Of a stretch of DNA of 64,000 nucleotides, positions 23,386-54,806 are shown piece by piece. Location: contig CAZTCH010000001.1 in assembly GCA_964612745.1 (NCBI GenBank), forward strand, positions 77,387 to 141,386, read 5' to 3'. Position 1 is the first letter of the stretch, and every line of letters begins with the position of its first letter. The notes beneath the pieces are model-generated. The model was given only the letters and a program-made list of their open reading frames with translations. It was not told the origin of the DNA and did not search any database. The position numbers and the translations under genes were made by a program. Source of the stretch: an uncultured Candidatus Saccharibacteria bacterium (lineage in GTDB: Bacteria; Patescibacteriota; Doudnabacteria; UBA920).

Positions 23386-23484
23386 GCCTAAAATTGACTT
23401 GCAAAAAGTCTTAAATTGTTGTACAATATAGATTCTCTTGTGCAGAGTATTCTGCTACTAGGGAGCTCTATTATATTGAACTAT

Positions 23485-24234
23485 ATGTCTGAACCACATT
23501 TTGAGTTACCTAAAAATTTAACACCACGAGACCCTGCAGATAACGATAGGGAGATAGAAGAAATAGTAAGCCCTATCCAGCCAGAACCAAAGCACAAACA
23601 TTTTAAAAGTGGGCTTATCCCTTTGTTGTTAGTTCTTTTGTGCGCAGGTGTGGGTGCGGTTGTGCTCTACGATGCGTGGCCAAAGTTTGAGTACGGTGCA
23701 AAAGAAGCGAAAGCACCAGAAGTTGTTGCGCAAGCAGTCGTACCAACACCATCAGTCATAGAATCCGTACAAGTACCAACACCTACACCACTCGTCTCAA
23801 GCATTGCGACTGATGTACCCAGTGTAGTTGCTGTGGTGCCAGCACCAACTCCAGTAGTAAAGGTTGCAGGAACGAGTACGACTCGTACGAAAAAAGCTAC
23901 AACGTACACCGCAGTAGATGGCGTACGCATAGCGCTTGCTGCAGGGGAAACCGCTTCTACCGGCGAAGGTGTTACGGTGGTATATGCTGCTAGTGGTGCT
24001 GTATTGCTTCGTGTTGAACAGTCTGCATTCTTGCTGGACACACCAGCAGCGCTCGGGTATCAGCTTGCTTTAAGCCCAGATATCTCTCGCTTGCAGTCTA
24101 CATTCTTTGGTGATTATCCAGCGTTCTCTTATGTCCAAGCAGGGCACAAAGGCATGGCGATTATCCGTGGTCAGGTTGTGTACTATGTTACCGAACGTGC
24201 CCAAAATCAGCTTTCTAAATTTTCTGTACAATAA
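23485..24234 (+). CDS. Membrane-anchored protein with Pro/Thr/Val-rich linker and C-terminal globular domain, unknown function
   Basis: Start chosen at MSEPHFELPK, downstream of a TTGCAA, 17 nt, TACAAT promoter-like element at about 23399-23428. Single TM near residue 50. Confidence 0.45.
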   Translation: MSEPHFELPKNLTPRDPADNDREIEEIVSPIQPEPKHKHFKSGLIPLLLVLLCAGVGAVVLYDAWPKFEYGAKEAKAPEVVAQAVVPTPSVIESVQVPTPTPLVSSIATDVPSVVAVVPAPTPVVKVAGTSTTRTKKATTYTAVDGVRIALAAGETASTGEGVTVVYAASGAVLLRVEQSAFLLDTPAALGYQLALSPDISRLQSTFFGDYPAFSYVQAGHKGMAIIRGQVVYYVTERAQNQLSKFSVQ

Positions 24235-24704: not shown

Positions 24705-25958
24705 ATGACAAAAATTTTACAAAATAAGAAAGTGTTCGCTGCCTTTTTAGGTATCGTGTTTGCACTTTCTGCGTTCCAGTTCGCTGGTGCGTCTCTGAAT
24801 TCGAATTATACTGCTATTAAAAATAGACAAGCGCGTTTTGCAGACACAACGACCGGTGGTGCGGTTATTACTGCTCCAGATCGTTTGCCAGTGGTTACAC
24901 CAACGCCTACACCAGCTGCTCCTTGTGCGATCATTCGCCCAGTTTCTGCAGTTGCTTCTGCTGTGCTTTCTGCTCCAACCGATGCAGTAAAAGCAATAGA
25001 CAACGACGTGAATACCATGTGGAATTCAGGTCAGTTTGCAACACAAGAAACACCAGTGTGGATCGAATTAAACTTAGGGGCAGTGTACGATGTGCAAGGT
25101 CTCCGAGTGCATGTTGCACAAAATCCAGATGCGAGCAGCCAACCAAAGCCTGCAGCACCTTTCCATGTCATTTTGACTGGTGAAAAGGCAAATCCAACCA
25201 CTGTTTCTACTACTTTGCACAAAGACTTGTACAACAAGACTTGGGAAGAAGTATCATTTAATACAGTCGCCACGCGAACACAATATGTACGTGTATTGAC
25301 TAAAAGCTCTCCTTCTTGGGTAGCTTGGTACGAGTTAGAAGTATGTGGAAACCCTTCTGGTCCAGTGGTAACGCTGTGCCCACAAGCACGAGTACAGATA
25401 ACGCAGCTGGCTTTGACTGTCGGTCAGACCACGACCGTTTCTGCTCCAGCGAATTGGTATGGTGGTTCCTTCCACACCACAAACCCTCAGGTAGTTACCG
25501 TAAATGGCACTACCATCACCGCAGTGGCTGCTGGTACTGCATCTATCTACGGAATGGGGTTCCGTGTTGGTCAGAACTGGCCATGTACAGCTGATGCTGT
25601 TATGGTTACCGTTACTGCGCCACAGATACAACCTTTTATTGGTGGATACGGTGTAGTCAGTACTTGTATGAGCCGCATGCATACCATTTCTGCAGTTTCT
25701 CCAGTACCAGCGGAGATTCGCTTTACTGAACTTCGCCTTGAAAAAACTCCTGCGAACCCAGGAAATTACACTGGGCCTCGGGTAGTTACTCTGACGAAGC
25801 AAGCAGATGGTGTATACCGTGGTAGTATTACGGTATCGACAAACCATTTCCCTGCAGGTACTGCTGCAATCTTTCGATTGTTTAGTACCTCTGGTGTGCA
25901 AATTCACCCAGGGTATGGTGCAGTCAGTCATGATTATGACGCACACTGCGGAAGCTAG
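24705..25958 (+). CDS. Secreted protein with F5/8 type C (discoidin) domain and a bacterial Ig-like (Big_2) domain
   Basis: Signal peptide. Discoidin motif AIDNDVNTMWNSG...WIELNLG. Big_2-like VTVNGTTITAVAAGTASI. Confidence 0.6.
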   Translation: MTKILQNKKVFAAFLGIVFALSAFQFAGASLNSNYTAIKNRQARFADTTTGGAVITAPDRLPVVTPTPTPAAPCAIIRPVSAVASAVLSAPTDAVKAIDNDVNTMWNSGQFATQETPVWIELNLGAVYDVQGLRVHVAQNPDASSQPKPAAPFHVILTGEKANPTTVSTTLHKDLYNKTWEEVSFNTVATRTQYVRVLTKSSPSWVAWYELEVCGNPSGPVVTLCPQARVQITQLALTVGQTTTVSAPANWYGGSFHTTNPQVVTVNGTTITAVAAGTASIYGMGFRVGQNWPCTADAVMVTVTAPQIQPFIGGYGVVSTCMSRMHTISAVSPVPAEIRFTELRLEKTPANPGNYTGPRVVTLTKQADGVYRGSITVSTNHFPAGTAAIFRLFSTSGVQIHPGYGAVSHDYDAHCGS

Positions 25959-26014
25959 TGTGATGAATAGCAAATATGAAACCCGTACGAATTTCGTACG
26001 GGTTTTTTGTTGGG

Positions 26015-27280
26015 CTATTCTTGGCTAACTGGTTGCCAGCGAATGGTGTAGAGGCTCGATTTTTCTGTTCTTTGATACAGTTTTGCTTTTGGGTTTTCCT
26101 CTTTGTAAGCTTGGTATGTTACGAAGTCTGCAAATGGGCGCAGCCCAGTTTGTTCGATTAAAAAGATGGTGGGATTATTTTTGAATTGCACCATGCTCCC
26201 AACTTTGATGCTTGTCGGCAATTTTGCAGGATTAGCCCTGCTGGGGAAGTTAAGGACGATGTCCATTTGGGGTTTCTGCTTGCCTTCTTCTGGCTCTATA
26301 GAAAGTGGGTAATCGCCCCACCACGGGCCGCTTGACCAGTATATGGCTCCAACGAGCTCGTCGTTGTTGTCGACTGTGTCGAGCATGTTTCGCATGATTG
26401 CGAGCGCTTGTGGGTCAGCGCTGGGGGCTCCGTATTCGGTAAGTATACCGCGTACTTTATGTGTTTTGAGCCATTGAAGGAAGGGGAGGATGCGCTCAGT
26501 GCCCAACGTGGCTGCGCTGGTGACTTTGCTTGCATATGTGCCGGTGAAATCTTTGTCAAAGTAGATGTGCGCTGCATAGAGTAGTTTTCCTGCAGGGTCA
26601 GCAATGAGCAAATCGCGGTTGTTGTCCTGCCAAAAATAGGCGCTTTGCCAGCTATATCCAGGGATAAGCAGAGTAGTTTTGGTGTCTACTTTTCGAATTT
26701 CGGTCACGGTGGTTTGCATGATGTTTTTCCATGCAGTACTACCACCCGGTAAGTCGTGTGGCTCGTTCATGAGTTCGGCTCCCCACAACGCTGGTTTTTG
26801 CTTTAACGCAGTGAGTAGCTTTACCCAAACGTCGGCAAGGGCAGCGTTATCTTCTTCTTGTAACGGTGTGTGGTAGTAGCGTCCGTAATTGTGCAGATCA
26901 AGAATTACTTTGGTGTTTGCTGTTGCAGCAGAGTCTAAAAATGCCGCAAGCGCGGTAACGCCGCTCTGGTTTAGTTCGCCAAATTTTTTTGCTTGGAGGC
27001 GTTCCCAGAGAAAGGGGAGTCGGACCACGGTTAAGCCTTTGCTGGAAAATGAGGTAAGAATTTCTGTATCGGTTGGGTATATATAGTCTTTGCCTTCTAC
27101 CCCTGGGAGCTTCTGGGGGCCGAATTCTGCTCCGCTGCGGTTAACGCCATATACTTTTTCTGGGCGGGGTGCGCTTGCTCCGTCTGCTCGGTTGCTACCG
27201 GACACAAATGGAAAAACCACCGTAAATAAGCAGAAAAGCAATAAAATTTTGTGTGATTTAGCCATTGACTTTTTTCTCAA
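26015..27280 (-). CDS. Secreted glycoside hydrolase family 5 (cellulase-like)
   Basis: Signal peptide. GH5 acid/base NEP motif (ELMNEPHD) and nucleophile TEYG motif (GILTEYGAP). Confidence 0.75.
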   Translation of the reverse strand: MRKKSMAKSHKILLLFCLFTVVFPFVSGSNRADGASAPRPEKVYGVNRSGAEFGPQKLPGVEGKDYIYPTDTEILTSFSSKGLTVVRLPFLWERLQAKKFGELNQSGVTALAAFLDSAATANTKVILDLHNYGRYYHTPLQEEDNAALADVWVKLLTALKQKPALWGAELMNEPHDLPGGSTAWKNIMQTTVTEIRKVDTKTTLLIPGYSWQSAYFWQDNNRDLLIADPAGKLLYAAHIYFDKDFTGTYASKVTSAATLGTERILPFLQWLKTHKVRGILTEYGAPSADPQALAIMRNMLDTVDNNDELVGAIYWSSGPWWGDYPLSIEPEEGKQKPQMDIVLNFPSRANPAKLPTSIKVGSMVQFKNNPTIFLIEQTGLRPFADFVTYQAYKEENPKAKLYQRTEKSSLYTIRWQPVSQE

Positions 27281-27359: not shown

Positions 27360-29444
27360 ATGCACCATTCCGTAATTGTCATTCCTACATATAACGAAAA
27401 AGAGAACATTGGTACGATTGTGCCAATGATTTTTTCTGTTGCAAAAAAACTGGAACGAGAGGCGATAATTTCAATTCTGGTAGTAGACGATACTTCTCCA
27501 GACGGTACGGCAGATGTGGTTCGGGCAATGCAAGCGCAGTATCCAAACTTGCAACTAATTCTGGGGAAAAAAGAAGGCTTGGGGAAAGCCTACGTCCGAG
27601 GAATGCATCATGCGTTAACGGTCTTGGGTGCGGACTCAGTATTTGAAATGGACGCAGATTTGTCCCACGACCCAGAGGCAATCCCAAGCATGCTCAGAGA
27701 AATTTTGTCTGACAGTGCCGATTTTGTGATTGGTTCACGATACGTTTCTGGTGGGTCTATCCCACTCGAGTGGCCTTTCATGCGCAAGCTCAATTCATGG
27801 GCAGGAAACTTTGTTGCTCGCGTAGTTATTGGGCTCTATGGTATTCGTGATTGTACCGGTGGTTTTCGTGCCATTCGTGCTTCGGTGCTTCAAGCTGTGC
27901 ATTTAGAAGAAATTCCAGTTGCAGGCTACGCTTTTCAAGTTAGCTTATTGCAACGAGCTGTTTTGGTTGGAGCACGGATATTGGAAGTACCAATTACTTT
28001 TCGTGACCGCGAAATTGGTGTGTCAAAGTTGCGACTGAAAGATCAAATTGAATTTATTTATAAATCCTTTACGTTACGCATTCATAGCCTGACTGTGCGC
28101 TACGGATTATTTGCATTACTATTTTCTGTTGTTGTAGCATTTTTCGCTGCTGTATACATGTCTACTGAGCACGTTGCTGCGTTTGTGGTAGGTATTTCTG
28201 TTTTGCTGTTGGCACAAGGTGTGTGGAATTTGTGGCTCATGATCCAAGTGTGGGATAACCCACATAAGACAGGTGAATATGGTTCACCAAAGACATATGA
28301 AGCGCCACAGTATTCTTTTACCGCACTGTTGCCTGCGCTACACGAAGAAGTAGTGATTGGAGATACTATTCGCGCTGTGCATGCAGTGGATTACCCAAGC
28401 CACTTAAAGCAGATTTTAGTCATTTGCCGGTACGACGACACGGGGACAATTGCAGCAGCAGAACAAGCGATTGCAGGTCTGGGCGAAGGTGCCAATGCGA
28501 AAGTACTGGTATATAACCGTATCCCAAGCAACAAGCCGAAACAAATGAACTTTGCTTTGGCAGAAACCACTGGGGATGTCGTTGTACCATTTGACGCAGA
28601 AGATGGACCACACAAAGATTTGTACCACATTGTAAACACCACCATGATTCGCCAGAATGCAGATGTTGTGCAGTCTGGGGTACAGCTCATGAACTTTGAA
28701 AGCAACTGGTATTCGGTGTACAACGTGTTGGAGTATTTCTTCTGGTTTAAGTCTGTCCTTCCGTATTTTGCTGCGCGTGGTGCAGTGCCTTTGGGTGGAA
28801 ACACCGTATTCTTTAAACGAAAGTGGCTAGAACGAATTGGTGGCTGGGACGAAGAATGTTTAACAGAAGATGCAGAAATTGGGATGAAGTTGTCCCAAGC
28901 TGGTGCGCGTATTCGAGTTATTTACGAAGAACAGCACGCAACCCAAGAAGAAGCACCGCTTTCACTGGGCGTGTTTATTAAGCAACGTACCCGTTGGCAC
29001 CAAGGGTTCATGCAAGTTATTGGCAAGGGTCAATGGCGTAAGTTTTTGACCGTAAGGCAGCAAGCATTGTCTTTGTACGTACTGGCATGGCCAGAAATCC
29101 AAGCGGTGTTGTTCTTGTACGCTTTTGTCTCTGCGGTTGCTTTGTTCTTTATTAAGCTTCCTGCATGGGCGACGGTCGTTTCTATATTGCCGTTGTATTT
29201 ACTCGTTGTATTGTTTGTTGTGTGTGTTGTTGCACTCTACCAATTTTGCCAAAGTTACAACAAGAAGTTTCCGTGGTGGATGCCGTTTAAAATGTTAGTA
29301 GCATTTTATCCTTTTCAGATTTTACTTGGAGTATCTGCGCTGCGAGCTGTGTACCGACTATTGAAAGGTTCAACTGGTTGGGAAAAGACTGTGCACGTTG
29401 GGGCACACCGTGTGAGCGTACCGCTAGAAGTACCGTTAGAATAA
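27360..29444 (+). CDS. Polyprenol-phosphate mannose synthase (Dpm1/Ppm1-like GT2) fused to a membrane domain and a second GT2 domain
   Basis: N-terminus VIVIPTYNEKENI, DDTSPDGT, MDADLSHDP, DCTGGFR matches DPM synthase. TM region at residues about 240-300. Second GT2 with FDAEDGP DXD motif. C-terminal TM helices. Confidence 0.75.
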   Translation: MHHSVIVIPTYNEKENIGTIVPMIFSVAKKLEREAIISILVVDDTSPDGTADVVRAMQAQYPNLQLILGKKEGLGKAYVRGMHHALTVLGADSVFEMDADLSHDPEAIPSMLREILSDSADFVIGSRYVSGGSIPLEWPFMRKLNSWAGNFVARVVIGLYGIRDCTGGFRAIRASVLQAVHLEEIPVAGYAFQVSLLQRAVLVGARILEVPITFRDREIGVSKLRLKDQIEFIYKSFTLRIHSLTVRYGLFALLFSVVVAFFAAVYMSTEHVAAFVVGISVLLLAQGVWNLWLMIQVWDNPHKTGEYGSPKTYEAPQYSFTALLPALHEEVVIGDTIRAVHAVDYPSHLKQILVICRYDDTGTIAAAEQAIAGLGEGANAKVLVYNRIPSNKPKQMNFALAETTGDVVVPFDAEDGPHKDLYHIVNTTMIRQNADVVQSGVQLMNFESNWYSVYNVLEYFFWFKSVLPYFAARGAVPLGGNTVFFKRKWLERIGGWDEECLTEDAEIGMKLSQAGARIRVIYEEQHATQEEAPLSLGVFIKQRTRWHQGFMQVIGKGQWRKFLTVRQQALSLYVLAWPEIQAVLFLYAFVSAVALFFIKLPAWATVVSILPLYLLVVLFVVCVVALYQFCQSYNKKFPWWMPFKMLVAFYPFQILLGVSALRAVYRLLKGSTGWEKTVHVGAHRVSVPLEVPLE

Positions 29445-29445
29445 T

Positions 29446-32130
29446 ATGAACGAACAAGAGATTTCACAATTACGCGCGGTTGGGTTACTCCCACAGTCTG
29501 AACAGACTGTGGCTCCTTCGGCGCACCCAACAGCGGCACCGACACATGTGCAGCATGTGCTTGCCACAGCAGACGATGCACTGGTGACCGAGCGTGGGGT
29601 GGTGACAACTCCAAAGATTTCTAAAATGTGGGAAATTGCACTGGTGGCAATCTTGCTCATTATTACTGCAGTAGCACATGGTACCAACATGTTGCAGTAC
29701 CCATACTACGAAAACGACGAAGGGACTTATATGTCACAAGCGTGGTCCGTGGTTACCTCTGGAACTTTGAGCCCGTACACGTACTGGTATGACCATGCAC
29801 CTGCTGGGTGGTTCTTTATTGCTGCATTTACCAAATTGGTTGGCGGATTCTTTGCATTTGGCACGAGCATAGACACGGGCCGAGTATTTATGTGGCTACT
29901 GCACGTGGTATCTGTATTTTTCGTCTATAGTATTGCCAAGCAACTCACCAAGGGGCGAGTACTGGCTGGGCTTGTCGCTGGATTAGTGTTTGCGTTATCT
30001 CCTCTGGCTCTCTACTTTGGCAGACGGGTGTTGCTAGATAATATGATGGTGTTCTGGGTGTTGTTGTCCTTGTGGACGTTAGTACGGGCAAAGGTGACCT
30101 TGCGCGCAACAGTGTTTGCAGCAGCTGCGTTTGGGGTTGCGGTGCTTACCAAAGAAACTGCGGTGTTTTTCTTGCCAGCATTTCTCTATGTGGTTTGGGC
30201 TGGTGTGCATAAATCACACCGTGTGTTTGGTTTGTCGCTCTGGGTGACTATCTCTGGCTTAGTGATTTCGCTGTATCCGTTGTACGCACTTATAAAGTCA
30301 GAATTCTTTCCTGCAAGCTGGTTTGGTTCGGGAAAGCACGTGAGTCTTTTGGAAACACTCAAGTTTCAGGCAGGGCGTGGTTCAGGGTTGCCGTTTTGGA
30401 ATACCCAGAGTGAGTTTTACACCAACTTGGTAGAGTGGTTTCACCGCGATACCGCACTTATGGTTATAGGTGGGAGCGCCCTGCTCCTTGGGCTTGTGTT
30501 TGCATATGCACGCAAAGAGTTTCGCGCGCCGTTGCTATTTGCAGTGTGTATGCTGTGGTTTTTGATGCGTGGTGGTATTATTATCAACTTTTACATTTTG
30601 CCACTGATTCCATTTCTCGCTTTGCTGATTGGTCTTGTGGTGTCACTGCTTGCAGAATCATTTAGTAAATTTTTGGTGAGCATAGACTGGGCGAAAGGAA
30701 TTGCGTATACGTATGCCGGTGCTGCAGTGGTTGCATGTGCGTTGTTCGTGGTGCCAATGCTTGCACAGTCTGGGGCGATTTACACAACAGACGAAACCGC
30801 GCCAATGAAACAGGCGCTCGAGTGGACCAAGCAAAACTTAGATCCGACTGCAGTTATGGTAGTGGACAACGCTATTTTTGTGGATTTGCGTGAAAGCCGT
30901 TTTGCTGGGGACCCTGCATTCAGCAATGCCGAGTGGTTTTGGAAAGTAGAAAAAGACCCAACAGTGTTTGCAGAGCGTATTGGTGGTGACTGGTTACACG
31001 TTGACTACGTGTTGTTGTCTCACGAAATGGTTCGCCAAATTAGTGACTATCAAATAACGTTGACCAAAGACATTTTGCCGCACACAAGTCTGGTGACTGG
31101 GTGGACTGGTGGGGGAGCGTTCTTGGATTTAGATAAATATATAAGTACAAATGGTGACTGGATGCGGGTGTACAAAGTGCATAGCCAAGAAGAGTTTGTA
31201 GGGGAAACACTCTGGCGTGCAGATGTAGCGCAGTATGTGCACAGCTATGGCCAAGTTGTGCCAGAGTCTGGTGTGACTACTGCAAGCACCCAAGCAGATA
31301 TGCTGCTTCGTGCAGTGCTGGTAGATGACCAGAAGACTTTTGCTGGGTTGTGGGCATGGACCCGTGACCATATGCAACACCGACAAGGGGATAAGCTCGT
31401 TTCCGAAGGCTGGCAGAATGGTTCTGCTGCAGTAGATTACAACGCGTACCTTGCCCCAAATCAAGATATCGCTACTGCGCTTATTTTGGCAGGACGCAAG
31501 TGGAAACAAGCAGAGTACACAACAGCAGGAACAGAAATTGTTGCAGACATTTGGAACAAACTCGCTATTTCTGCAAATGGACAAACACTGCTTGCAAGTT
31601 CTACGAAGCAAGGTGTGCAAGAAAGCAGACTGGTTAACACCAGCTTGCTTGCTCCGGCGTCCTACCGACTCTTTGCGCAAGTGGATAAAAGCCGCCCATG
31701 GGCTACACTAGCAGACCAAAGCTATACGTTGTTGCCAAACACAACTGCAACACTTACGAAAGAACTTACTGTTTCTAAATCCGGGGTAATTACCAAAGTT
31801 ACTTCTGGTGCATATGCACCTGCTGTTGTAGAGAAGCATGTAGCACAAGATGCTGTGTGGTTCGAAACTGATACTGCTCAGGCTTGGTTTACTACAAGCA
31901 CTGGCGAAGTTGCAAGTCTGACTACGGCAACTGTGAAAGACAAGCAATTGGCACAAGAGCTGTACGCGGAAGCCATTGCAACACACTTTAACAGAACAGA
32001 AAAAGCATGGGCTACAGAACTCGGATTTACAGAAAAGAGTGCTCTGTGGCAAGCATTTAGTTTGTTTGCTCCAGACCAGCGACTTATATCGGTTCTGCGA
32101 AATATAACCCCAGTAGTAGCAACGAAATAG
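29446..32130 (+). CDS. GT-C fold glycosyltransferase family 39 (PMT/ArnT-like) with large C-terminal extracytoplasmic domain, possibly an (alpha/alpha)6 glycosidase-like fold
   Basis: DE motif just after the first TM (YYENDEGTYMSQAW), about 11 TM helices, then about 450 aa soluble domain with GH8-like hints (DIATALILAGRKW). Confidence 0.65.
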   Translation: MNEQEISQLRAVGLLPQSEQTVAPSAHPTAAPTHVQHVLATADDALVTERGVVTTPKISKMWEIALVAILLIITAVAHGTNMLQYPYYENDEGTYMSQAWSVVTSGTLSPYTYWYDHAPAGWFFIAAFTKLVGGFFAFGTSIDTGRVFMWLLHVVSVFFVYSIAKQLTKGRVLAGLVAGLVFALSPLALYFGRRVLLDNMMVFWVLLSLWTLVRAKVTLRATVFAAAAFGVAVLTKETAVFFLPAFLYVVWAGVHKSHRVFGLSLWVTISGLVISLYPLYALIKSEFFPASWFGSGKHVSLLETLKFQAGRGSGLPFWNTQSEFYTNLVEWFHRDTALMVIGGSALLLGLVFAYARKEFRAPLLFAVCMLWFLMRGGIIINFYILPLIPFLALLIGLVVSLLAESFSKFLVSIDWAKGIAYTYAGAAVVACALFVVPMLAQSGAIYTTDETAPMKQALEWTKQNLDPTAVMVVDNAIFVDLRESRFAGDPAFSNAEWFWKVEKDPTVFAERIGGDWLHVDYVLLSHEMVRQISDYQITLTKDILPHTSLVTGWTGGGAFLDLDKYISTNGDWMRVYKVHSQEEFVGETLWRADVAQYVHSYGQVVPESGVTTASTQADMLLRAVLVDDQKTFAGLWAWTRDHMQHRQGDKLVSEGWQNGSAAVDYNAYLAPNQDIATALILAGRKWKQAEYTTAGTEIVADIWNKLAISANGQTLLASSTKQGVQESRLVNTSLLAPASYRLFAQVDKSRPWATLADQSYTLLPNTTATLTKELTVSKSGVITKVTSGAYAPAVVEKHVAQDAVWFETDTAQAWFTTSTGEVASLTTATVKDKQLAQELYAEAIATHFNRTEKAWATELGFTEKSALWQAFSLFAPDQRLISVLRNITPVVATK

Positions 32131-37451: not shown

Positions 37452-39092
37452 TTATTGTACCAGATATTTGGTCACAACAATCCATGTGCCAGAATATGGC
37501 CTGACATCGGCAAAACCGGCTTCGTCGGCCTGCTTCCAATTGCTGGGCACTGTTGGTTTGTTGCTCCCAAACGCGTTGGTCCATAACAGCCACACGGTGT
37601 CACCTGTTTTTACTGCATCGGCAAAGGAGGGGAGTAAATCTGCATCTGTGAGAATGGCGGTACCTACAAAGTGAGGCAGATTTTTTACAGATGTATTGCC
37701 GCCAGAGTAGAGCATGGGTCTGGGCCATTCTGCAGTCCGGTCCAAGGTTCGTATTTGTGCGGGCGGTGCGTCATCGCTTAAATCTTCGAGGCTGTATCGC
37801 GAAGACGACATGGTAGTGGTTTGGGTGACGATTGCTGCGGGTGGGGTAAGTTGCGATAAGTAGTATTTTAGGTTAAAGAATTCAAAGCTCGTCCCTACAT
37901 AGAGTTTGTCGGTTGGTGTCGCGTGACTCTGTAAGTAGGTCGCAGCTCCAGCCATACCAGTTTTTTTAGTAATGTCTAACTTCTGCCAGTTATTGGCAAA
38001 CACAAGTACACACACAATGGCGTATGCAGCTGTTGCGGTCCAAATAAGCCACGAACGTTTCCACGAGTCTATCCAGAGTGCGAGAGCTGCCAGAAGAAAA
38101 GCTGATGCGTACAAAAAGTATCGCACAAGGTAAACCGAAGAGCTTTGGCCTTTTACAAATGCAAGCAGTGCAAACAGGAGAGAGCCTGCAAAGGGTGCGG
38201 CAAACAGAAATGCCACGAGCCACACGTGAGTATTTTTTTGTTTTTTGAGAAGGAGGGCAAAAATACTGACGAGTACAATGGTGGTAACTGCCAAAGTGAT
38301 TTTGGTCGTTGTTTTTGCAATGTCCGACTCAAGGCCAAATGTGACCTGCCACAGTGTGGAAGGAATGCTCCACCAATTGAGTGGTGGAATCCAATACCCC
38401 GCACCAACTTGTTTAAACTGGAAGATAAACCAATTTGTCCACGGTAAAAACAAGAGGATTGTGGTCAGGTATCCAGTGGCGAGTGGTGCGTAGGCGCGTA
38501 TATCTTTTTTGAAATGCACTGCGGTGTAGAGTAAGGCGTACACGCATGCAGCTACCACAGAAAAAAGTAAGTAGTAGTGGGTGAGCGCAGCAATCCCTGC
38601 CAGAGCTCCAAACGCGACAAATAATTTGAATTTATTTTTTATTTCCGTGCTGTTCAGGGCTTTTGCCAGCACCCACGCCATGCTTACCGCGAGAAATGCG
38701 CCAAATGTGTACATACGTGCTTCGGTGGCGTATTGGATTTGAAATGGGTTGACGACTATAGCAAGTGCGGCGATTGTCGCAGCTCTGGGGCTTTTAAAGA
38801 TATCTCGCACAAATCCGTACGTAGTTGCTGCTGTTGCCAGCCCAAAGAATACCGAAAAGCCACGCAGGGCGAGCAGTGAGTCGCCAAGCAGCATGCTCCA
38901 TAACCGGAGCGCAACGTAATACGCTGGTGGGTGCACGTCCAGACCGATACGGTAGAACATCTCACCCCACGGGTAGTGAATGAGCAGTGCGGAAAATGCT
39001 TCGTCATGCCACAAAGAAATGCTCGTGTTGTGGTAGAGGCGAAGGAAAAGACCAAAGGCAAGGATAGAGACGAGAGCGAGGTATTTTTTCAT
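37452..39092 (-). CDS. GT-C fold glycosyltransferase family 39 (ArnT/PMT-like)
   Basis: N-terminal TM then a DE motif (LWHDEAFSALL). About 12 TM helices plus a C-terminal soluble domain. Confidence 0.7.
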   Translation of the reverse strand: MKKYLALVSILAFGLFLRLYHNTSISLWHDEAFSALLIHYPWGEMFYRIGLDVHPPAYYVALRLWSMLLGDSLLALRGFSVFFGLATAATTYGFVRDIFKSPRAATIAALAIVVNPFQIQYATEARMYTFGAFLAVSMAWVLAKALNSTEIKNKFKLFVAFGALAGIAALTHYYLLFSVVAACVYALLYTAVHFKKDIRAYAPLATGYLTTILLFLPWTNWFIFQFKQVGAGYWIPPLNWWSIPSTLWQVTFGLESDIAKTTTKITLAVTTIVLVSIFALLLKKQKNTHVWLVAFLFAAPFAGSLLFALLAFVKGQSSSVYLVRYFLYASAFLLAALALWIDSWKRSWLIWTATAAYAIVCVLVFANNWQKLDITKKTGMAGAATYLQSHATPTDKLYVGTSFEFFNLKYYLSQLTPPAAIVTQTTTMSSSRYSLEDLSDDAPPAQIRTLDRTAEWPRPMLYSGGNTSVKNLPHFVGTAILTDADLLPSFADAVKTGDTVWLLWTNAFGSNKPTVPSNWKQADEAGFADVRPYSGTWIVVTKYLVQ

Positions 39093-39378
39093 GGTAACTA
39101 AGTTACAAATACGTAATTCGTAATGCGCAATGTGAAATCAGAATTCAGAACTCCGAAACAAACTCCAATCCACAATCCGCCAAACGGCGGAGGCGGACGA
39201 AATCTAAGTTTTAAACATTGGGATTTATTCTTGATGGGCTCTGTGTATAGTTTACAGTTTTGAGTTGAAGTTTTGCGTTTTGACTTTTGAATTTTGAGTT
39301 ACATTTGTATTTATTTGGGCTTTGTCCGCCAGCTGGCGGATTGGAATTTATTTGAATTTGTTGTTTGTTATTTGGTAT
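39093..39378. repeat. Dispersed intergenic element containing a 52-bp conserved motif (39250-39301) flanked by an internal inverted repeat (ccaatccgcc...ggcggattgg)
   Basis: gtttacagttttgagttgaagttttgcgttttgacttttgaattttgagtta is identical to 44719-44770. Heptamer ttttgNN periodicity. Confidence 0.55.
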
Positions 39379-41190
39379 TTACTGTATTTCATACACTGCC
39401 AACACTGCTTGACCGAATTTGTTGCGCATTTCTGTTTGCAACTTGGCGTTGGGGTAAAATGCTTTAAACTTTTTTACATCGAACATGCTGGATTGGGTGA
39501 AGACCACTTGCATACCAGGGAGTAAGCCGTGAGGGTAGGTTGATTTGCCGCGGATAATGTCGGAAGGGGCAAGCCACGCATCTTCTGGGTCCACTTGCAT
39601 GTACGGCATGTTTTTTGGATTATCGACGCAGTTTGGTACACGGAATGCTTCGGTGCGGTCACAGGCACGTGCGCCATCTACTGTGGTGAGGTAGTCAACG
39701 GTTTGCACAGAAAACTTGTCGAGTACTAAATATGTAGTGTTTCTATCTCCATGCTTTTTCAAGTAGTCACTCACGACTGTTAAGTCACTGCGAAAAGCAA
39801 AATAATTTTCTGGGCTATGTGCTGCACCAATAAAATAGTGGGCGTACGTTTGGATAGGTACCCCAATAAAGAAACACACTGCAAGTATTTGCAAAGAAAT
39901 TTGCACTGCTCGTTCCATGCGCGGGCTGCCATGGGGGTGTTTGGTTACTACGTGCCAGACAAACGACCCAACGGTGTGCAAGCCATATGCGGTGATTATG
40001 AACACTGCAGGAATAGTCCCAATAGCTCTGAGGCCGTGGGGGATTCCTTCTGCAGTCGTAATGACCGGTAAAAGGAAAGAAACGAACCAGCCTGCCAAAA
40101 CAAAGCTTGGGTAATGTCGTTTCTGTTGGATAGGGGAGAACATGTAGCGCAGTGCATTCCAAATCACCAGTAACAACCCAAACGCAAAGAATGGGGAAAC
40201 GAGAGGGGAGAGGAAGGCAAGCCCAGAAATATTGTGTCGCCAGTTTAGGTCGCCTTCGGTAAAGTAGCCAAGAAAACTAACTCGCGTTACTTCCAGTACC
40301 GTGCCAATCAAATCACCCTTGTTCAGTTCTGGGTTAAATACGCTTACTTGGCCGCTTCTACCAATAAAGGCATCTGGGTGTGTGTAAAAATAGTGCGCTA
40401 AAGGAGTTATACAAATCGCAAAAGCAATAATTGCCAGAGCGGTCGCTTTCCAGTATGGCGAAAGAGTGGCAACGAGTCCTCGTTCTTTTAAGTGCGCAAG
40501 GAGTGGCCAAATAATGTACAAAGCAAGCAGTGGGGCGAGTACCCGATAGGCAATGTATGTGTAAAACCCAAGTGCAAAGCTTGCACCGAGCGCAATAGCA
40601 TATGCATATTGTGTTTTGCGAGGTTGGTCGCTTTGGTATGTTTTGAGGAGGAAGAGTACAGTGGCGGTAACAAAGAGCGGAATCATGTTTGCACGAAACG
40701 CAGTGCGAGAAAGTACTACATGCCATGTAGAAGTTGCCATGATAAACGTGGCGAGCAGGGCTACTATATTTGCAGATCCAACAGTTTGCTGCACTTGCTC
40801 TACCAATGTTTGTCTGCCAATTTGTACGGTGCGTTCTGCGTGTGTGTCTTCTTCTCTTCCGACTAGTTTTCTAAACAGAGCCTTTGTGACATAAAAACAA
40901 AGTACTGTGGCGCCAATGCCAACGAGGGCGGAGACGACGTGGTGCGCAAATGGGCTTCTGCCGAATAGCTTTACAGAAGCGTACAAGAAGTAAAAGAATA
41001 AAGCTTCACGACCATTGCCTCGTTCGTAAAACGGCTGGAAGAAGCCTTGGTCCATCGAGTTTATGTCTAGTCCATTTGCTGCTTCGTCAGGGAATAAACC
41101 GCCCGGAAGACTGCCAATATGGTACAGTCGAAAGAATAGAGCAAGGGCAAACGTGAGGATTGTTATGGCGAGAAATATCTTTTTATTCAT
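39379..41190 (-). CDS. GT-C fold glycosyltransferase family 39 (ArnT/PMT-like)
   Basis: N-terminal TM then a DE motif (GLFPDEAANGLD). Polytopic, 603 aa. Confidence 0.7.
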   Translation of the reverse strand: MNKKIFLAITILTFALALFFRLYHIGSLPGGLFPDEAANGLDINSMDQGFFQPFYERGNGREALFFYFLYASVKLFGRSPFAHHVVSALVGIGATVLCFYVTKALFRKLVGREEDTHAERTVQIGRQTLVEQVQQTVGSANIVALLATFIMATSTWHVVLSRTAFRANMIPLFVTATVLFLLKTYQSDQPRKTQYAYAIALGASFALGFYTYIAYRVLAPLLALYIIWPLLAHLKERGLVATLSPYWKATALAIIAFAICITPLAHYFYTHPDAFIGRSGQVSVFNPELNKGDLIGTVLEVTRVSFLGYFTEGDLNWRHNISGLAFLSPLVSPFFAFGLLLVIWNALRYMFSPIQQKRHYPSFVLAGWFVSFLLPVITTAEGIPHGLRAIGTIPAVFIITAYGLHTVGSFVWHVVTKHPHGSPRMERAVQISLQILAVCFFIGVPIQTYAHYFIGAAHSPENYFAFRSDLTVVSDYLKKHGDRNTTYLVLDKFSVQTVDYLTTVDGARACDRTEAFRVPNCVDNPKNMPYMQVDPEDAWLAPSDIIRGKSTYPHGLLPGMQVVFTQSSMFDVKKFKAFYPNAKLQTEMRNKFGQAVLAVYEIQ

Positions 41191-41228
41191 TTGCTTTTTA
41201 GTTCAATTTTTTGTATAATTATTTTTAA

Positions 41229-41570
41229 GTGACACTCATGACTCAGCATAAATACTATTTCATTTTGTTGTTTCTACTTGCCGTTGTTATACATATCATA
41301 ACATGGCTCTTAATTGTGAGTTATGCACCAACCAGTGGGCAACTCGTTCCAATCCACTACAACGTTATTAGCGGGTACGACGAACTGGGTAGCAGAGCAG
41401 ATTTATTGCAAGTACCAGTGTTTGGGATGCTCGTTGTGGTGGTGAATGCGGTCATTGCGTGGCTGTTTCGTTCAACTGGCCGGTTTGTGGGATCGCTTGC
41501 AGTAGGAGTGGCTTTAGCAGTGTCTCTGGTGTTGTTGCTCAGTACCTTGTTGCTTGTGGTACAAGCTTAA
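41229..41570 (+). CDS. Small membrane protein, unknown function
   Basis: 113 aa, 3 TM helices. tgtataatt -10 at about 41200. Confidence 0.4.
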   Translation: MTLMTQHKYYFILLFLLAVVIHIITWLLIVSYAPTSGQLVPIHYNVISGYDELGSRADLLQVPVFGMLVVVVNAVIAWLFRSTGRFVGSLAVGVALAVSLVLLLSTLLLVVQA

Positions 41571-41591
41571 TTTTGAATATATCTATATTGT

Positions 41592-43259
41592 ATGTTTCGT
41601 AAACGCACGCTCACAGAACGTTTTTGGGAAGTACTCCCTGGTTTGCAGTTTTGGTCTGCTTTTTTAGGTGCCATTGCACTTGCAAAGTACCAACCTGTTT
41701 GGGCAGCGTTATTTATTATTTGTTTTGATTTATATTGGGTGCTCAAAGCCTGCAATGTTGGCTTGCACCTGCTTTCCAGTTACCGCAAGTTTCGTGTGCA
41801 TGTAACCATCGATTGGCTTTCGGAAGTACGTGCGATAACGACAGATGTAACGTCGTACATTGCGAAGCTAACACAACAAGCAGAGACGGATACTCGCGTG
41901 GTAGCGAGGCACTACTTTGCGCATGAAGTAGAAAGACTCCAAAAGCTTCTTGCTTCGGGTAAGACGATACGGTCGTACGAAGACATCGTGCATTTGGTGT
42001 TGTTTCCTTTTGTAGACGAGTCGGTAGAAGTGTTGTCTTCGACGTTGGACGCCATGCTCGCAGTGAACTACCCGAAAGAGAAGATCTTTATTATATTGGC
42101 GAGCGAAGGACGCATGGGCGAGCCTGCGCAAGAAACAGCCCGGATACTGAGAGAAAAATACGCCAAGCACTTTGGCAATTTCTTTGTCACCGTGCACCCC
42201 GATGGTTTGGAAGGGGAAATAAAAGGGAAAAGTGCCAATGCGAGCTGGGCTGTGCAAGCAGTTATGCCAGAGTTGGAGCGTTTAGGCATAGCTGTGCCTG
42301 ACTGTATGGTGTCGAACTTCGACAGTGACACGGTGGTGCACCCACAATATTTTGCGCGCGTGACCTACGAGTTTTTGACCGCAGAAAAGCCATATCGTTC
42401 CAGCTACCAACCAATCGCTATCTACAACAACAACATTTGGGACGCACCAGCATTTATTCGGGTGATTAGCGTATCCAACTCTTTTTGGCAGTTTACTGAA
42501 AGCAGCAGGCCAGACCGATTACGTACGTTTAGCTCTCATTCCATGACGCTGCAAGCACTGGTAGAGGTTGGTTTTTGGAAAAAAGATTTGGTGAACGAAG
42601 ACGGGTTTATTTTCTGGCAATGCTACTTGCACTACGAAGGGGATTACTCCGTCGTGCCTTTGTTTATCCCTATTAGCTTGGACACCTGTTTAGCAGAGAC
42701 AACGTGGCAAACGTTTAAGAACCAGTACTTACAAAAGCGTCGTTGGGCGTACAACGTAGAGTATTACCCACACTTAATTTGGCCACTCATACGTTCGAAA
42801 GCGCCATTTTGGGATAAGTTTTTGAAGCTCTACCAGTATGTGGAAGGGAACTTTAACTGGGCAACTGCTAGTGTTTTGATTTCTACGCTCGGACTTTTAC
42901 CACTGTTCTTGGGTGGTCCAGAGTTTTTGGATAGTGTTGTGGCGTACAACTTGCCACACGTGACCCAAACGTTATTGCGCGTGTCGTTGGTGTTTATTTC
43001 TGCGAGTGTGTACGTGAACTTGGTGTTATTACCTCCACGTCCAGCAAAATATGGCCGTTTCCGCAGCGTCATGATGTACTTGCAGTGGTTGCTAGTTCCT
43101 TTTGTGTCACTTATTTTTGGAAGTATTCCTGCGATTGAAGCGCATACACGGTTAATGCTGGGTAAGTATTTAGAGTTCTGGGTGACCCCGAAAGTTCGCA
43201 AAGGGGAGAGTACAGGGTTGACCATGAAAGAAATGCAAAAAGTTGGGGAGAATAAGTAG
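41592..43259 (+). CDS. Membrane-embedded processive family 2 glycosyltransferase (cellulose/chitin synthase-like)
   Basis: Ordered motifs D, DSD (NFDSDTV), ED (NEDGF), and QKRRW (QxxRW), with flanking TM helices. Confidence 0.65.
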   Translation: MFRKRTLTERFWEVLPGLQFWSAFLGAIALAKYQPVWAALFIICFDLYWVLKACNVGLHLLSSYRKFRVHVTIDWLSEVRAITTDVTSYIAKLTQQAETDTRVVARHYFAHEVERLQKLLASGKTIRSYEDIVHLVLFPFVDESVEVLSSTLDAMLAVNYPKEKIFIILASEGRMGEPAQETARILREKYAKHFGNFFVTVHPDGLEGEIKGKSANASWAVQAVMPELERLGIAVPDCMVSNFDSDTVVHPQYFARVTYEFLTAEKPYRSSYQPIAIYNNNIWDAPAFIRVISVSNSFWQFTESSRPDRLRTFSSHSMTLQALVEVGFWKKDLVNEDGFIFWQCYLHYEGDYSVVPLFIPISLDTCLAETTWQTFKNQYLQKRRWAYNVEYYPHLIWPLIRSKAPFWDKFLKLYQYVEGNFNWATASVLISTLGLLPLFLGGPEFLDSVVAYNLPHVTQTLLRVSLVFISASVYVNLVLLPPRPAKYGRFRSVMMYLQWLLVPFVSLIFGSIPAIEAHTRLMLGKYLEFWVTPKVRKGESTGLTMKEMQKVGENK

Positions 43260-43576
43260 GGGGTAAGAGAGAATAGAGAGTAGAGGTTAGAGAATAGTAA
43301 GACAGGAATGAGGAGTTAGGAATTAGGTTGTCGTTCGACCCTGAGCTCACGGCCTAAGGGTAGGGAGTAGTAAAATAAATTCCAAATCTCAAGCACCAAA
43401 TAACAATAAATTCCAAAATCCAAAGTAAAAACTAGTAAGTCAAAACTGTAAACTTTCAATACATTTCAGTTTTGAGTTTACAGTTGCAGTTTTGCGTTTT
43501 GACCTTTCAGTTCTCAGTTTTATGCTTTTATTTAGCATTTAGCATTTAGCACTTAGCACTTAGTACTCGTTCAACT
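43260..43576. repeat. Intergenic heptamer-repeat element (purine arm, 52-bp motif variant at 43467-43522, ttagcat/ttagcac tandem)
   Basis: Direct reading. Same architecture as 39093-39378 and 44633-44930. Confidence 0.55.
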
Positions 43577-44632
43577 ATGAACTACTTACTCTATTGCGGT
43601 ATTGCATGTGTGTTGGCACTGGTGATTACGCCTTTGGTGCGTAAGCTGGCTTTTCGCCTTGGGTGCGTCGATAGACCGCAGGGCGGCAGGCATATTCACA
43701 CGAAAGAAACTGCTTTACTGGGCGGTTTAGCTGTTATCTTCTCTATGGTGTTAGCGGGTGGACTCTATGTGCTTTCTGGTAGTTTTGATTTTTCTGTGGT
43801 TCCTACCAAATTTGTGGTTGGCATTGTCACCGGCGTGTTCCTGCTAGTGTTGGGTGGATTTTTTGATGATAAATATACGCTACCCGCTCGCTACTCGTTT
43901 GTGTTTCCAGCGCTTGCTGCGGCGGCGGTAGTAGCTTCGGGGGTAGGTGTGGGGATCACTATATTGACCAACCCATTTGGTGGCGTAGTCCACTTGGGTA
44001 CTCTGTGGTTGGGTGTGCCAATCTCCGCGGTCTTCGTGTGGTTGTGGATTGTAGGTATGACGTACACCACCAAGCTACTGGACGGCTTAGATGGTTTAGC
44101 TGCAGGAGTGTCGCTCATTGGTGGTTTGGTTATGTTTGCTCTGTCACTCACAGATAAAGTTAACCAACCAGTCACGGCAACCCTGGCAATAATTTTTGTG
44201 GGGGCACTTGCTGGCTACTTGTTTTACGCGTTTAATCCTGCCTCTATCTTTTTAGGTGAAATTGGCAGCACATTTCTTGGCTTCTTTCTCGCGGTGCTCG
44301 CGGTGTTAACGGGAGCAAAAATTGCTACTGCGGTACTTGTGATGGGGATTCCGATTTTTGATGTAGCTTGGGCAATTGTCCGCAGACTCTGGCGACGACA
44401 AAATCCATTTGTGGGGGATAGAGAGCATTTGCATTTTCTGCTACTCGATGCAGGGCTTTCACAGCGACAAGCGGTGTTGGTGTTTTACGCACTTGCAGGC
44501 TTGTTTGGCTTTGTAGCAGTGTTCCTACAAAGCATGGGTAAGCTGGTGGCGCTATTTTTACTTTTGGCAGTCATGGTGGGGATTGTAGGGGCTCTGGCGA
44601 GAGTGTATAGGAAGAAGACTAGTAACGAGTAA
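43577..44632 (+). CDS. Glycosyltransferase family 4 polyprenyl-phosphate sugar-1-phosphate transferase (WecA/MraY family)
   Basis: 351 aa, 10-11 TM helices. The N-terminal pattern and conserved cytoplasmic loops match the MraY/WecA superfamily. Confidence 0.7.
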   Translation: MNYLLYCGIACVLALVITPLVRKLAFRLGCVDRPQGGRHIHTKETALLGGLAVIFSMVLAGGLYVLSGSFDFSVVPTKFVVGIVTGVFLLVLGGFFDDKYTLPARYSFVFPALAAAAVVASGVGVGITILTNPFGGVVHLGTLWLGVPISAVFVWLWIVGMTYTTKLLDGLDGLAAGVSLIGGLVMFALSLTDKVNQPVTATLAIIFVGALAGYLFYAFNPASIFLGEIGSTFLGFFLAVLAVLTGAKIATAVLVMGIPIFDVAWAIVRRLWRRQNPFVGDREHLHFLLLDAGLSQRQAVLVFYALAGLFGFVAVFLQSMGKLVALFLLLAVMVGIVGALARVYRKKTSNE

Positions 44633-53530: not shown

Positions 53531-53545
53531 CAAGCTAGTAAAATT

Positions 53546-53574
53546 TGCTCAAAAGCCCTCCAAACTGGTATAAT
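53546..53574 (+). promoter_or_regulatory. Promoter with extended -10 (TTGCTC, 17 nt, TGGTATAAT) 6 nt upstream of the ATG, implying a leaderless transcript
   Basis: tggtataat at 53566-53574. ATG of MNTPDAIFFIG at 53581. Confidence 0.45.
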
Positions 53575-53580
53575 TTACAC

Positions 53581-54156
53581 ATGAATACACCTGATGCAAT
53601 ATTTTTTATAGGACGGTCTGGTGCTGGAAAAGGAACTCAAGCACGTGAACTTTCCGAGCGACTTGGGTTTTTTTATTGGGAGATGGGCGCAATTTTGCGT
53701 GCCGAAATTTCTCGTGGTACGCCTATTGGCAAGGAAATCCAAGCACTTGTGAACCAAGGGTTGTTTTTGGGTGACCACCACATGTTCAAAGTTATTGCGA
53801 GTCATATCGACGAAATCCCCGAAGGCAAAGGCATTATTTTCGACGGACTACCACGGCGCATGAGCCAAGCACCATATGTTATCGGCTTACTCCATGGTTT
53901 GGGTCGCAAAGATTTGGCAACGTTGTTTTTAGATGTTCCCCGAGAAGACTCAGTTGAACGTTTGCTCAAGCGAGCAACTGTCGAACACCGACCAGACGAC
54001 ACAGAAGAAGTAATCAACCGTAGACTCGACCAGTTCGAACAAGAAACGTTACCTGTGCTGGACTTCTTGCAAGAGATGACACGTTTTTATCGGATAGATG
54101 GCAGGCCAGCAATTCCAGAAGTGACTACCGCCATTAACACACTGCTCGAAATCTAA
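53581..54156 (+). CDS. Adenylate kinase family nucleoside monophosphate kinase (short LID type)
   Basis: P-loop GRSGAGKGTQA, NMP-binding and FDGLPRRMSQA motifs. Start chosen at the leaderless ATG rather than 53545. Confidence 0.7.
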   Translation: MNTPDAIFFIGRSGAGKGTQARELSERLGFFYWEMGAILRAEISRGTPIGKEIQALVNQGLFLGDHHMFKVIASHIDEIPEGKGIIFDGLPRRMSQAPYVIGLLHGLGRKDLATLFLDVPREDSVERLLKRATVEHRPDDTEEVINRRLDQFEQETLPVLDFLQEMTRFYRIDGRPAIPEVTTAINTLLEI

Positions 54157-54806
54157 TGCCAACAGCGCGTACCAAAGTAGCGAAGAAGACACCAGCGAAG
54201 GCGGAGCAGCCGCTCAATATTTTTGTGCTCGGTGACTTAGGTGCGGGTAAAGGGACGCAGTCGGTGCTACTGCAAAATCTGTTTCCGTTGTACGAAATAG
54301 ACATGGGGATAGAGCAAGAGCTGCAGCGACGTAAAGATCCAAAGCTCGATGCGCTGCTTAAGCGAACTGTGGATCAAGGTAAGCTGAATAACACTACCGT
54401 GTACCGACGCTTAGTGAAAAACGCAGTGTTGCGGGCACCGAAGAGTAAAGGTATTTTGTTTGCTGGGCATCCGAAAATGCCAGACGAAGTGCGCTATGTA
54501 AATCGCTTTTTGCGCACTCTGGGTAGGACTCGGGCGATCGCTGTGTACATTACGATTCCATGGAAAGAAACAGTGCGCAGAAATTCGCAACGCAAAGGTT
54601 ACTTCGGAAACAAGAAGCGGCCAGACGATTCGCTTGCTGCAATCGCAGTTCGCAGGAAAAATGCCCAAGCTAGTTTGCGCCAGTCGCGCAGTGTGTACAA
54701 AGAGTTGTACCCGTACTTGCAGATTAGTGGCATGGGGACTGTGCGCGGTGTGCACGGCAGAGTCATGCAGGCAATACAAAAGCTGACTAAAAAGCTGGAC
54801 TCGTAA
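54156..54806 (+). CDS. Second, divergent adenylate kinase-like NMP kinase paralog
   Basis: P-loop LGDLGAGKGTQS. Divergent NMP-binding region (FAGHPKMPDEV). Start overlaps the stop of the previous gene. Confidence 0.55.
   Translation: MPTARTKVAKKTPAKAEQPLNIFVLGDLGAGKGTQSVLLQNLFPLYEIDMGIEQELQRRKDPKLDALLKRTVDQGKLNNTTVYRRLVKNAVLRAPKSKGILFAGHPKMPDEVRYVNRFLRTLGRTRAIAVYITIPWKETVRRNSQRKGYFGNKKRPDDSLAAIAVRRKNAQASLRQSRSVYKELYPYLQISGMGTVRGVHGRVMQAIQKLTKKLDS

Follow-up and report, generated by a model that had tools for sequence, protein, structure and literature searches.

Two adjacent genes in a 64,000-nucleotide stretch of bacterial DNA (the window), here called A and B, appear to form, together with a divergent gene for a secreted endoglucanase of glycoside hydrolase family 5 (GH5), a compact version of a conserved four-module system for an envelope polysaccharide. 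We give this reading, including the decoration of the polymer which it implies, a probability of about 45%. Gene A (27360..29444, + strand, 694 aa) is predicted to encode a protein that unites a lipid-sugar synthase and a polymer synthase, and gene B (29446..32130, + strand, 894 aa) a membrane glycosyltransferase of the GT-C type followed by a linker domain and a degenerate domain of glycoside hydrolase family 8 (GH8). The second glycosyltransferase family 2 domain of A (GT2b) would polymerise and export a beta-linked glycan, while the first one (GT2a) would charge polyprenyl phosphate with a sugar, probably mannose. Once the lipid-linked sugar has been flipped, the GT-C would add it to the emerging polymer outside the membrane, comparable to the Gtr or CsbB-GtcA-YfhO systems. 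Like BcsZ, the ancestral GH8, tethered to the GT-C beside the synthase, would have served to trim or release the polymer. In the clade of the window, GH8 would be a pseudoenzyme retained for a non-catalytic role, either in polymer handling or in holding the complex together, and cleavage of the polymer would have passed to the secreted GH5 endoglucanase. For GT2b, GH8 and GH5 alike, the nearest relatives act on beta-1,4-glucans.

The open reading frames (ORFs) of A and B have exactly the coordinates given in a preliminary description of this DNA, and all motifs named there (PTYNEKENI, DDTSPDGT, DADLSHDP, DCTGGFR, YENDEGTY and DIATALILAGRKW) could be confirmed in the two translations. At the junction (29442..29448; this and all further features of A and B lie on the + strand) the sequence reads GAA TAA T ATG, that is a TAA stop, a spacer of one nucleotide and an ATG start, and a terminator scan found no terminator-like site between the two genes. 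The Pfam domain matches in both proteins are far above chance. According to a hydropathy scan, both GT2 domains of A are placed in the cytoplasm and the GH8 domain of B outside.

Genes for MurD, FtsW, MurJ, LepA, ATP synthase, DnaB and CysS mark the window as bacterial chromosome, and over 3.8 kb of the locus its DNA is 94% identical to a contig of a Candidatus Saccharibacteria metagenome-assembled genome (L007). From this identity we assign the organism to the relatives of Saccharibacteria within the Candidate Phyla Radiation (CPR). Because these bacteria are monoderm, the C-terminal part of B has to be called extracytoplasmic and not periplasmic, as it had been named before; the size of about 450 aa given at the same time is right (449 aa, residues 446-894, after approximately 11 transmembrane (TM) helices).

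GT2a occupies residues 1-240 of gene A (27360..28079) and is matched by PF00535 at residues 6-178 (E 2e-31). In a search with the single sequence the nearest solved structure is the dolichol-phosphate-mannose synthase (DPMS) of P. furiosus (5mlz, E 1.2e-32, residues 6-239), whose DADLQH pairs with DADLSH of GT2a in the alignment. The residues D98, A99 and D100 of the DAD motif (27651..27659), near-invariant in the family, are shared by the window protein, as are the other invariant and near-invariant GT2a residues. When a profile of 92 sequences of the gene A family was compared with the PDB, DPMS scored 175.7 bits (E 1.5e-50), ArnC 88 and GtrB 57.6 bits. By these scores GT2a belongs to the DPMS type and is more distant from GtrB and ArnC, as proposed in the preliminary description; the clustering with GtrB-type enzymes, which had been named there as the outcome speaking against this assignment, is not seen. 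None of the NCBIfam equivalog models reaches its cut-off (AglJ: 75.8, where 325 would be needed).

A hairpin of two TM helices (approximately residues 246-297, 28095..28250) joins the two cytoplasmic GT2 domains according to the hydropathy scan, and Pfam finds no match to the four-helix GtrA/DPMS_TM domain (PF04138) in the window gene A. GT2b follows with residues 300-565 (28257..29054); PF13641 and PF13632 together span residues 320-616 (E 1e-38). Its motifs DAED (412-415, 28593..28604), TED (502-504, 28863..28871) and QRTRW (542-546, 28983..28997) are invariant across the 92 homologues and present in the window protein. BcsA (4hg6) is the nearest solved structure, and KAGN, DxD, TED and QRxRW align with it motif for motif. 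About three further TM helices (approximately residues 572-664, 29073..29351) and a conserved WEKTxHxxAHR tail complete the protein. We therefore assign GT2b, by homology, to the processive synthases of the BcsA/PgaC/NodC class, and both GT2 domains of this fusion of a lipid-sugar synthase with a polymer synthase look catalytically intact as judged from their motifs.

A cellulose synthase proper was considered for GT2b and rejected: Pfam finds neither a PilZ domain nor BcsB in A, B or the neighbouring genes, the FFCGS acceptor motif of BcsA aligns to PLGGN, and the equivalog scores stay far below the cut-offs (CelA TIGR03030 45.7 against 699, PgaC 96.8 against 422). The term "Ppm1-like fusion", which had been applied to gene A, fits only the catalytic domain of GT2a. 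Its fusion partner is a BcsA-like processive synthase and not an Lnt-like (CN-hydrolase) domain, of which Pfam finds none in gene A. Nor is the tandem-GT2 architecture as unusual as supposed, since proteins of the A type form at least 120 full-length clusters, nearly all of them from Patescibacteria. Two relatives of gene A (P0231 and P0240) are tandem-GT2 variants of about 900 aa with an N-terminal FHA domain, which hints at a phospho-threonine-dependent regulation.

The membrane domain of gene B (residues 58-445, 29617..30780) has approximately 11 TM helices. PMT_2 covers residues 116-275 with 50.9 bits (cut-off 26.1), and the invariant D91-E92 motif (29716..29721) lies in the first outside loop. 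The multiple membrane spans, this acidic motif and the fold place the domain in the clan of the protein O-mannosyltransferases (PMTs) and ArnT, and as a glycosyltransferase it looks intact by its motif. In the fold search Pmt4 leads ALG12, AglB and ArnT only marginally. A profile of the gene B family, when run against the PDB chains, found GH8 entries only, no GT-C and no solved PMT, so that the GT-C assignment rests on Pfam and the fold searches. The N-terminal tail ahead of the first helix (residues 1-57, 29446..29616) is weakly conserved in the family alignment and its residues 20-49 were modelled with a predicted local distance difference test (pLDDT) below 50, a pattern consistent with a disordered cytoplasmic tail.

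An AlphaFold model of the C-terminal part of B (pLDDT 94.2; full-length protein 92.1, with a predicted template-modelling score of 0.86) consists of an alpha/beta linker of 130 aa and an (alpha/alpha)6 barrel. The conserved extracytoplasmic linker (residues 446-575, 30781..31170, pLDDT > 90) has no Pfam match. It always accompanies the GT-C, also in relatives without GH8 (L047, L048, L062-L064, L070 and L075), and by this distribution it belongs to the GT-C module. The barrel corresponds to residues 576-894 (31171..32127). PF01270 matches it at residues 576-767 with 64.7 bits (cut-off 24), and CMCax and BcsZ are the top Foldseek matches of the C-terminal domain. The glycosidase-like (alpha/alpha)6 fold suspected in the preliminary description is thereby borne out; a beta-sandwich, the alternative fold considered there, does not agree with the model.

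While the fold is that of GH8, the catalytic residues are not. Across 120 homologues the consensus is canonical, with the acid Glu of TTSEGQSYAMLR in 105 and the two signature Asp of ASDADxDIA in 102 and 108 of the sequences. The window protein has Ser614 in place of the Glu (31285..31287), and its signature reads YLAPNQDIA, with Ala670 (31453..31455) and Asn672 (31459..31461) at the positions of the Asp. In addition a segment of about 20 residues (LPPNW...YGYDAFR) is deleted, which we take, following the convention for the family, to carry the GH8 base Asp. The stretch that had been called reminiscent of the GH8 signature is thus present in a GH8 fold, but in degenerate form. Judged from these residues, the GH8 domain of the window is catalytically dead. 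As suggested before, most members of the family may couple glycan transfer to trimming; for the window protein this does not hold.

The same catalytic losses are found in the nearest relatives (P0002-P0011 and P0013). Within this degenerate clade the position of the acid Glu varies between S, N, G, R and Q. Twelve residues of the fold core (W590, Y601, W638, D641, H642, R646, D649, W686, W703, Y740, W752 and W868) are kept in 11 of 11 clade members, in contrast to the catalytic and putative cleft residues E614, Y618, W654, D670, D672, Y734, D791, R798 and W866, which are kept in none of them. GH8 diverges faster than the GT-C in the degenerate clade (identity ratio 0.62 versus 0.95 in the canonical clade). 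Nevertheless the domain is under purifying selection in the clade relatives and is not decaying: for four clade genes the nonsynonymous divergence (dN) is 0.10-0.16, the synonymous divergence (dS) is saturated and omega is about 0.06 or less, with similar values for the GT-C domain.

Loss of the catalytic residues is a recurrent event in this family. A neighbour-joining tree was computed for 168 fused proteins from their GT-C and linker regions; with Glu at the root, Fitch parsimony requires at least 14 changes of the acid position on it, two of them from E to D. Across the gene B family we count at least 12 losses of the catalytic Glu. Some CPR relatives carry two tandem GT-C/GH8 genes: one of the two copies lacks the catalytic Glu in L024 (8843..14517), both copies are intact in L026 (8455..13775), and in L045 (8810..13610) a separate 728-aa protein with an intact GH8 domain comes after a fused degenerate GH8.

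Studying the distribution of the modules shows that the pair is a member of a large group. The fusion of the B type forms 721 clusters at E < 1e-5, nearly all from Patescibacteria. In 80 loci from species-representative genomes, which we annotated with hidden Markov models from our own alignments, the four modules (synthase, DPMS-like, GT-C and GH8) recur, either fused or as separate genes, in Patescibacteria, Chloroflexota, Dormibacterota and Actinomycetota. In CPR and Chloroflexota GH8 is fused to the GT-C, and the DPMS-like domain is fused to the synthase, encoded by a separate upstream gene, or absent within 10 kb. Actinomycetota, among them Curtobacterium, Frigoribacterium, Plantibacter, Microbacterium and Mycolicibacterium, encode each module in a gene of its own, arranged as synthase, GT-C, GH8, DPMS-like. 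In loci with canonical GH8 (L003-L005) a stand-alone synthase of 458-502 aa stands ahead of the fusion gene.

The synthase gene lies directly upstream of the GT-C gene, abutting or overlapping it, in 72 of 89 related loci; of the other 17, four are at contig edges and most others are tandem paralogues or artefacts of ORF calling in high-GC sequence. Because the synthase adjoins the GT-C so regularly, the core pairing would be that of the synthase with the GT-C/GH8 protein and not a Ppm1/Pmt pair for protein mannosylation. In three relatives (P0236, P0237 and P0239) a full four-TM GtrA/DPMS_TM domain (PF04138) is found between the two GT2 domains and the GT-C gene is still the next one. Such a complete DPMS unit fused to the synthase, with the GT-C following, points to a flipped lipid-linked donor. 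In the literature we searched, neither the fusion nor the cluster is described; the database labels for the gene B family are only "glycosyl hydrolase family 8" and "endo-1,4-beta-D-glucanase Y". The Actinoplanes gsf cluster (PMC13390465), which we considered as a possible case of the same system, has neither GT-C nor synthase.

The GH5 gene (26015..27280, - strand, 421 aa), divergent from gene A, was overlooked in the preliminary description; the presence of GH5 tracks the degenerate state of GH8. The encoded protein is a predicted secreted enzyme resembling endo-beta-1,4-glucanases (PF00150, E 3.7e-37). Its best PDB match is the endoglucanase 4lx4 (E 4.8e-72), the catalytic Glu motifs NEP and TEYG are intact, and the N-terminus has a hydrophobic signal-like segment. 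In our locus table of 78 rows a GH5 gene within 10 kb accompanies 6 of 25 rows with degenerate GH8 and none of 53 rows with intact GH8 (Fisher p = 7e-4), a statistic which ignores phylogeny. Two further degenerate-GH8 loci with GH5 (L088 and L091) were found after this table. Altogether orthologues stand beside the A-B pair in L001, L002, L029, L033, L034, L088 and L091. In L001, L088, L091 and the window the GH5 gene is divergent and upstream of the pair; L002 and L029 have it on the same strand right behind the pair, and in L033 and L034 it is found at a distance of 2 kb. Position and strand thus differ while the linkage is kept, which argues for a selected linkage.

A GH5 that is unrelated to the pair, for example a nutritional or host-directed cellulase which lies nearby by chance, is a separate alternative that we consider unlikely. 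Secreted degradative enzymes of the GH5 endoglucanase type are widespread. The gene is encoded on the opposite strand and has its own terminator, a 12-bp hairpin after the stop codon (26005..25979, - strand), and GH5 is missing from the 10 kb around some loci with degenerate GH8. Against chance stand its persistence beside the pair despite the rearrangements and its absence from all 53 rows of the table with intact GH8. A scan for sigma-70 promoters in the region between A and GH5 gave 8 sites, where 7.9 are expected from shuffled sequence.

Several points weigh against one part or another of the main reading. In the literature we found no report of a GT-C decorating a synthase-dependent polysaccharide, so the central step is without direct precedent. 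Many of the related loci lack a DPMS-like gene in the surrounding 10 kb, and among the small multi-TM ORFs of the window there is no gene for a GtrA-type flippase near the pair. Two such ORFs were considered for this function and rejected: 41229..41570 (113 aa) has no Pfam match, and 57153..57488 resembles a holin (PF04020). As FFCGS is replaced by PLGGN, the polymer may not be a glucan. The putative cleft aromatics Y618, W654, Y734 and W866 have gone along with the catalytic residues, which weakens the idea that the dead GH8 still binds the same glycan. The selection estimate comes from four genes of a sister sub-branch and not from the window gene, with dS saturated, and the closest DNA relative, L007, stops before the GH8 domain. 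Finally, the GH5 cases are concentrated in Saccharibacteria-like lineages.

A different use of the same modules would be a lipid-primed synthesis, in which the product of GT2a primes GT2b and the exported lipid-linked polymer is moved by the GT-C to the wall, a protein or a lipid, or is cut off by GH8 or GH5. We regard this as distinctly unlikely. The many loci with a stand-alone synthase and no DPMS-like gene in the 10 kb around it speak against it, and GT2a stands at the far end of the cluster in Actinomycetota. Moreover GT-Cs of the oligosaccharyltransferase type use diphosphate-linked donors, while the products of DPMS are monophosphate-linked monosaccharides, and the GtrA/DPMS_TM domain of some relatives is typical of systems that carry monosaccharides.

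Protein O-mannosylation of the Ppm1/Pmt type is the explanation that the DPMS-like GT2a and the PMT_2 match of the GT-C would first suggest. GT2a would then make polyprenyl-phosphate-mannose, the GT-C would mannosylate secreted proteins, and the synthase and GH8 would be passengers. It appears improbable to us. The constant partner of the GT-C is a processive synthase, in the 72 of 89 loci mentioned above, and this also where no DPMS-like gene is nearby; furthermore a polysaccharide-active GH8 fold is fused to the GT-C or follows it in four phyla. The lead of Pmt4 over ALG12, AglB and ArnT is marginal, the sequence profile finds no solved PMT, and two other PMT-type GT-C genes in the window could serve protein mannosylation.

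That the GH8-like domain has acquired a new active site and remains an enzyme (a transglycosylase, a lyase or a hydrolase using other residues) seems very improbable: its strong purifying selection, the polar residues strictly kept in the clade (D628, D641, H642, R646, D649, D674, D747 and D802) and the fact that the position of the catalytic base already differs among GH8 subfamilies would fit, but none of the three canonical carboxylates remains, a deletion has taken out about 20 residues with the base among them, the putative cleft aromatics are gone, the residue replacing the acid varies, unlike a new fixed catalytic residue, and an intact GH5 has been recruited alongside.

The decoration model can be extended to a wider claim, which we put forward tentatively and hold to be possible but doubtful. 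The four modules would represent a previously unrecognised pathway of CPR, Chloroflexota, Dormibacterota and Actinomycetota, in which a GT-C glycosylates the emerging polymer of a synthase, the first such case, and in which the synthase-associated GH8 would be essential in a non-catalytic way, for handling the polymer or assembling the complex. A non-catalytic role of this kind would explain a dozen catalytic losses despite purifying selection, and it would also have a bearing on the long-standing problem of why synthases of the cellulose type require a "cellulase". Saccharibacteria and other CPR bacteria live on host cells, to which they are attached, and have tiny genomes. Because many of these tiny genomes keep the system, its product is probably an important surface polymer.

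If these assumptions hold true, two textbook routes of glycan synthesis, namely synthase-dependent secretion and decoration by a lipid carrier and a GT-C, would be joined in one system. The repeated conversion of GH8 into a selected pseudoenzyme with a GH5 beside it would be a natural experiment on structural versus catalytic roles of synthase-associated glucanases, BcsZ included. The literature on pseudoenzymes offered us general analogies only. For annotation it matters that the two current labels of the gene B family overlook its GT-C half and, for the degenerate clade, wrongly imply hydrolase activity. The split modules in culturable Actinomycetota make the pathway accessible to ordinary genetics. 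What we consider most important is a phylum-spanning uncharacterised pathway, the existence of culturable relatives and a recurrent, selected loss of catalysis in a synthase-associated glucanase.

Several observations on the surroundings can be added. Just upstream of GH5 two secreted proteins with Pro/Thr-rich linkers are encoded (23416..24234 and 24705..25958), the second of which carries an F5/8 type C (discoidin) sugar-binding domain; Pro/Thr-rich linkers are typical targets of O-mannosylation in Actinomycetota. We also considered whether the C-terminal extension of GH5 (345-421) shares a wall-anchoring module with a surface protein of 701 aa and rejected this (BLASTP E 0.12 over 7 residues, no Pfam domain). 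In the degenerate-clade relatives L002, L088, L089 and L091 a CarboxypepD_reg protein of about 440-450 aa is conserved directly downstream of the GT-C/GH8 gene on the opposite strand; Pfam scans of the ORFs downstream of the window gene B found no such domain. L088 and L091 contain in addition a weak GH26 match and further synthase-type GT2 genes.

The window harbours a second cluster for envelope glycans (37452..44632). It comprises the two further PMT-type GT-C genes (37452..39092 and 39379..41190, both on the - strand), a processive-type GT2 of 555 aa (41592..43259), which is preceded by the 113-aa ORF with three TM helices, and a GT4 gene resembling MraY/WecA (43577..44632). Between FtsW and MurJ, within a cluster of cell-wall genes, lies a DUF4012 protein of 718 aa (4467..6623). 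The holin-like ORF mentioned above encodes 111 aa with four TM helices (PF04020, mycobacterial phage holin superfamily IV, E 9e-34), and two neighbouring genes at 53545..54806 resemble adenylate kinases. The GC skew is positive in every 2-kb bin of the 64 kb (0.01 to 0.23) despite genes on both strands, which suggests that the entire window lies within one replichore.

Among the known systems, three-component extracytoplasmic glycosylation, as in GtrA/GtrB/GtrC, CsbB-GtcA-YfhO and GacI-GacL (PMC11127046, PMC7389260; introduction of PMC13390465), likewise pairs a membrane GT2 making polyprenyl-phosphate sugar with a GT-C acting outside. Here the GT2 and the GT-C are both present and adjacent, and some relatives also have the GtrA/DPMS_TM domain. 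The system differs in that its GT2 is of the DPMS and not the GtrB type and that no separate GtrA gene was found among the small multi-TM ORFs of the window. It would also be wired to a synthase-dependent polymer and not to O-antigen, teichoic acid or rhamnan, and its GT-C carries GH8. Actinobacterial Ppm1 carries an Lnt-like domain. Unlike the Ppm1-Pmt pair, gene A has no such domain according to Pfam, and the constant genomic partner of the GT-C is a polysaccharide synthase. From the P. furiosus DPMS (5mlz) gene A differs by having only 2 TM helices after GT2a in place of the four-TM DPMS domain.

A parallel to the GH5 beside a degenerate GH8 is known from the clostridial cellulose synthase operon ccsABZHI, where the GH5 protein CcsZ stands in for the GH8 protein BcsZ (PMC7710045), so that in both cases a GH5 endoglucanase would be the synthase-associated hydrolase. 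The Clostridia do this without GH8, whereas here the GH8 fold is kept beside GH5 as a selected domain that is predicted to be inactive. The window GH5 is closest to 4lx4 and to fungal endoglucanases of the EGI type such as 1gzj, and no structure named CcsZ is among its 45 PDB matches.

The likeness to BcsA and BcsZ (CMCax) lies in the genetic coupling of a processive membrane GT2 with DxD, TED and QxxRW to a GH8 protein of the (alpha/alpha)6 fold outside the membrane. Differences are the absence of PilZ and BcsB from the pair and its neighbours and of a conserved FFCGS motif, the fusion of the lipid-sugar synthase to the polymer synthase, and a GH8 which is not free but fused to the GT-C and which appears catalytically dead. 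Taken together, the system resembles a hybrid of a synthase/hydrolase pair of the Bcs type and a three-component glycosylation of the Gtr type.

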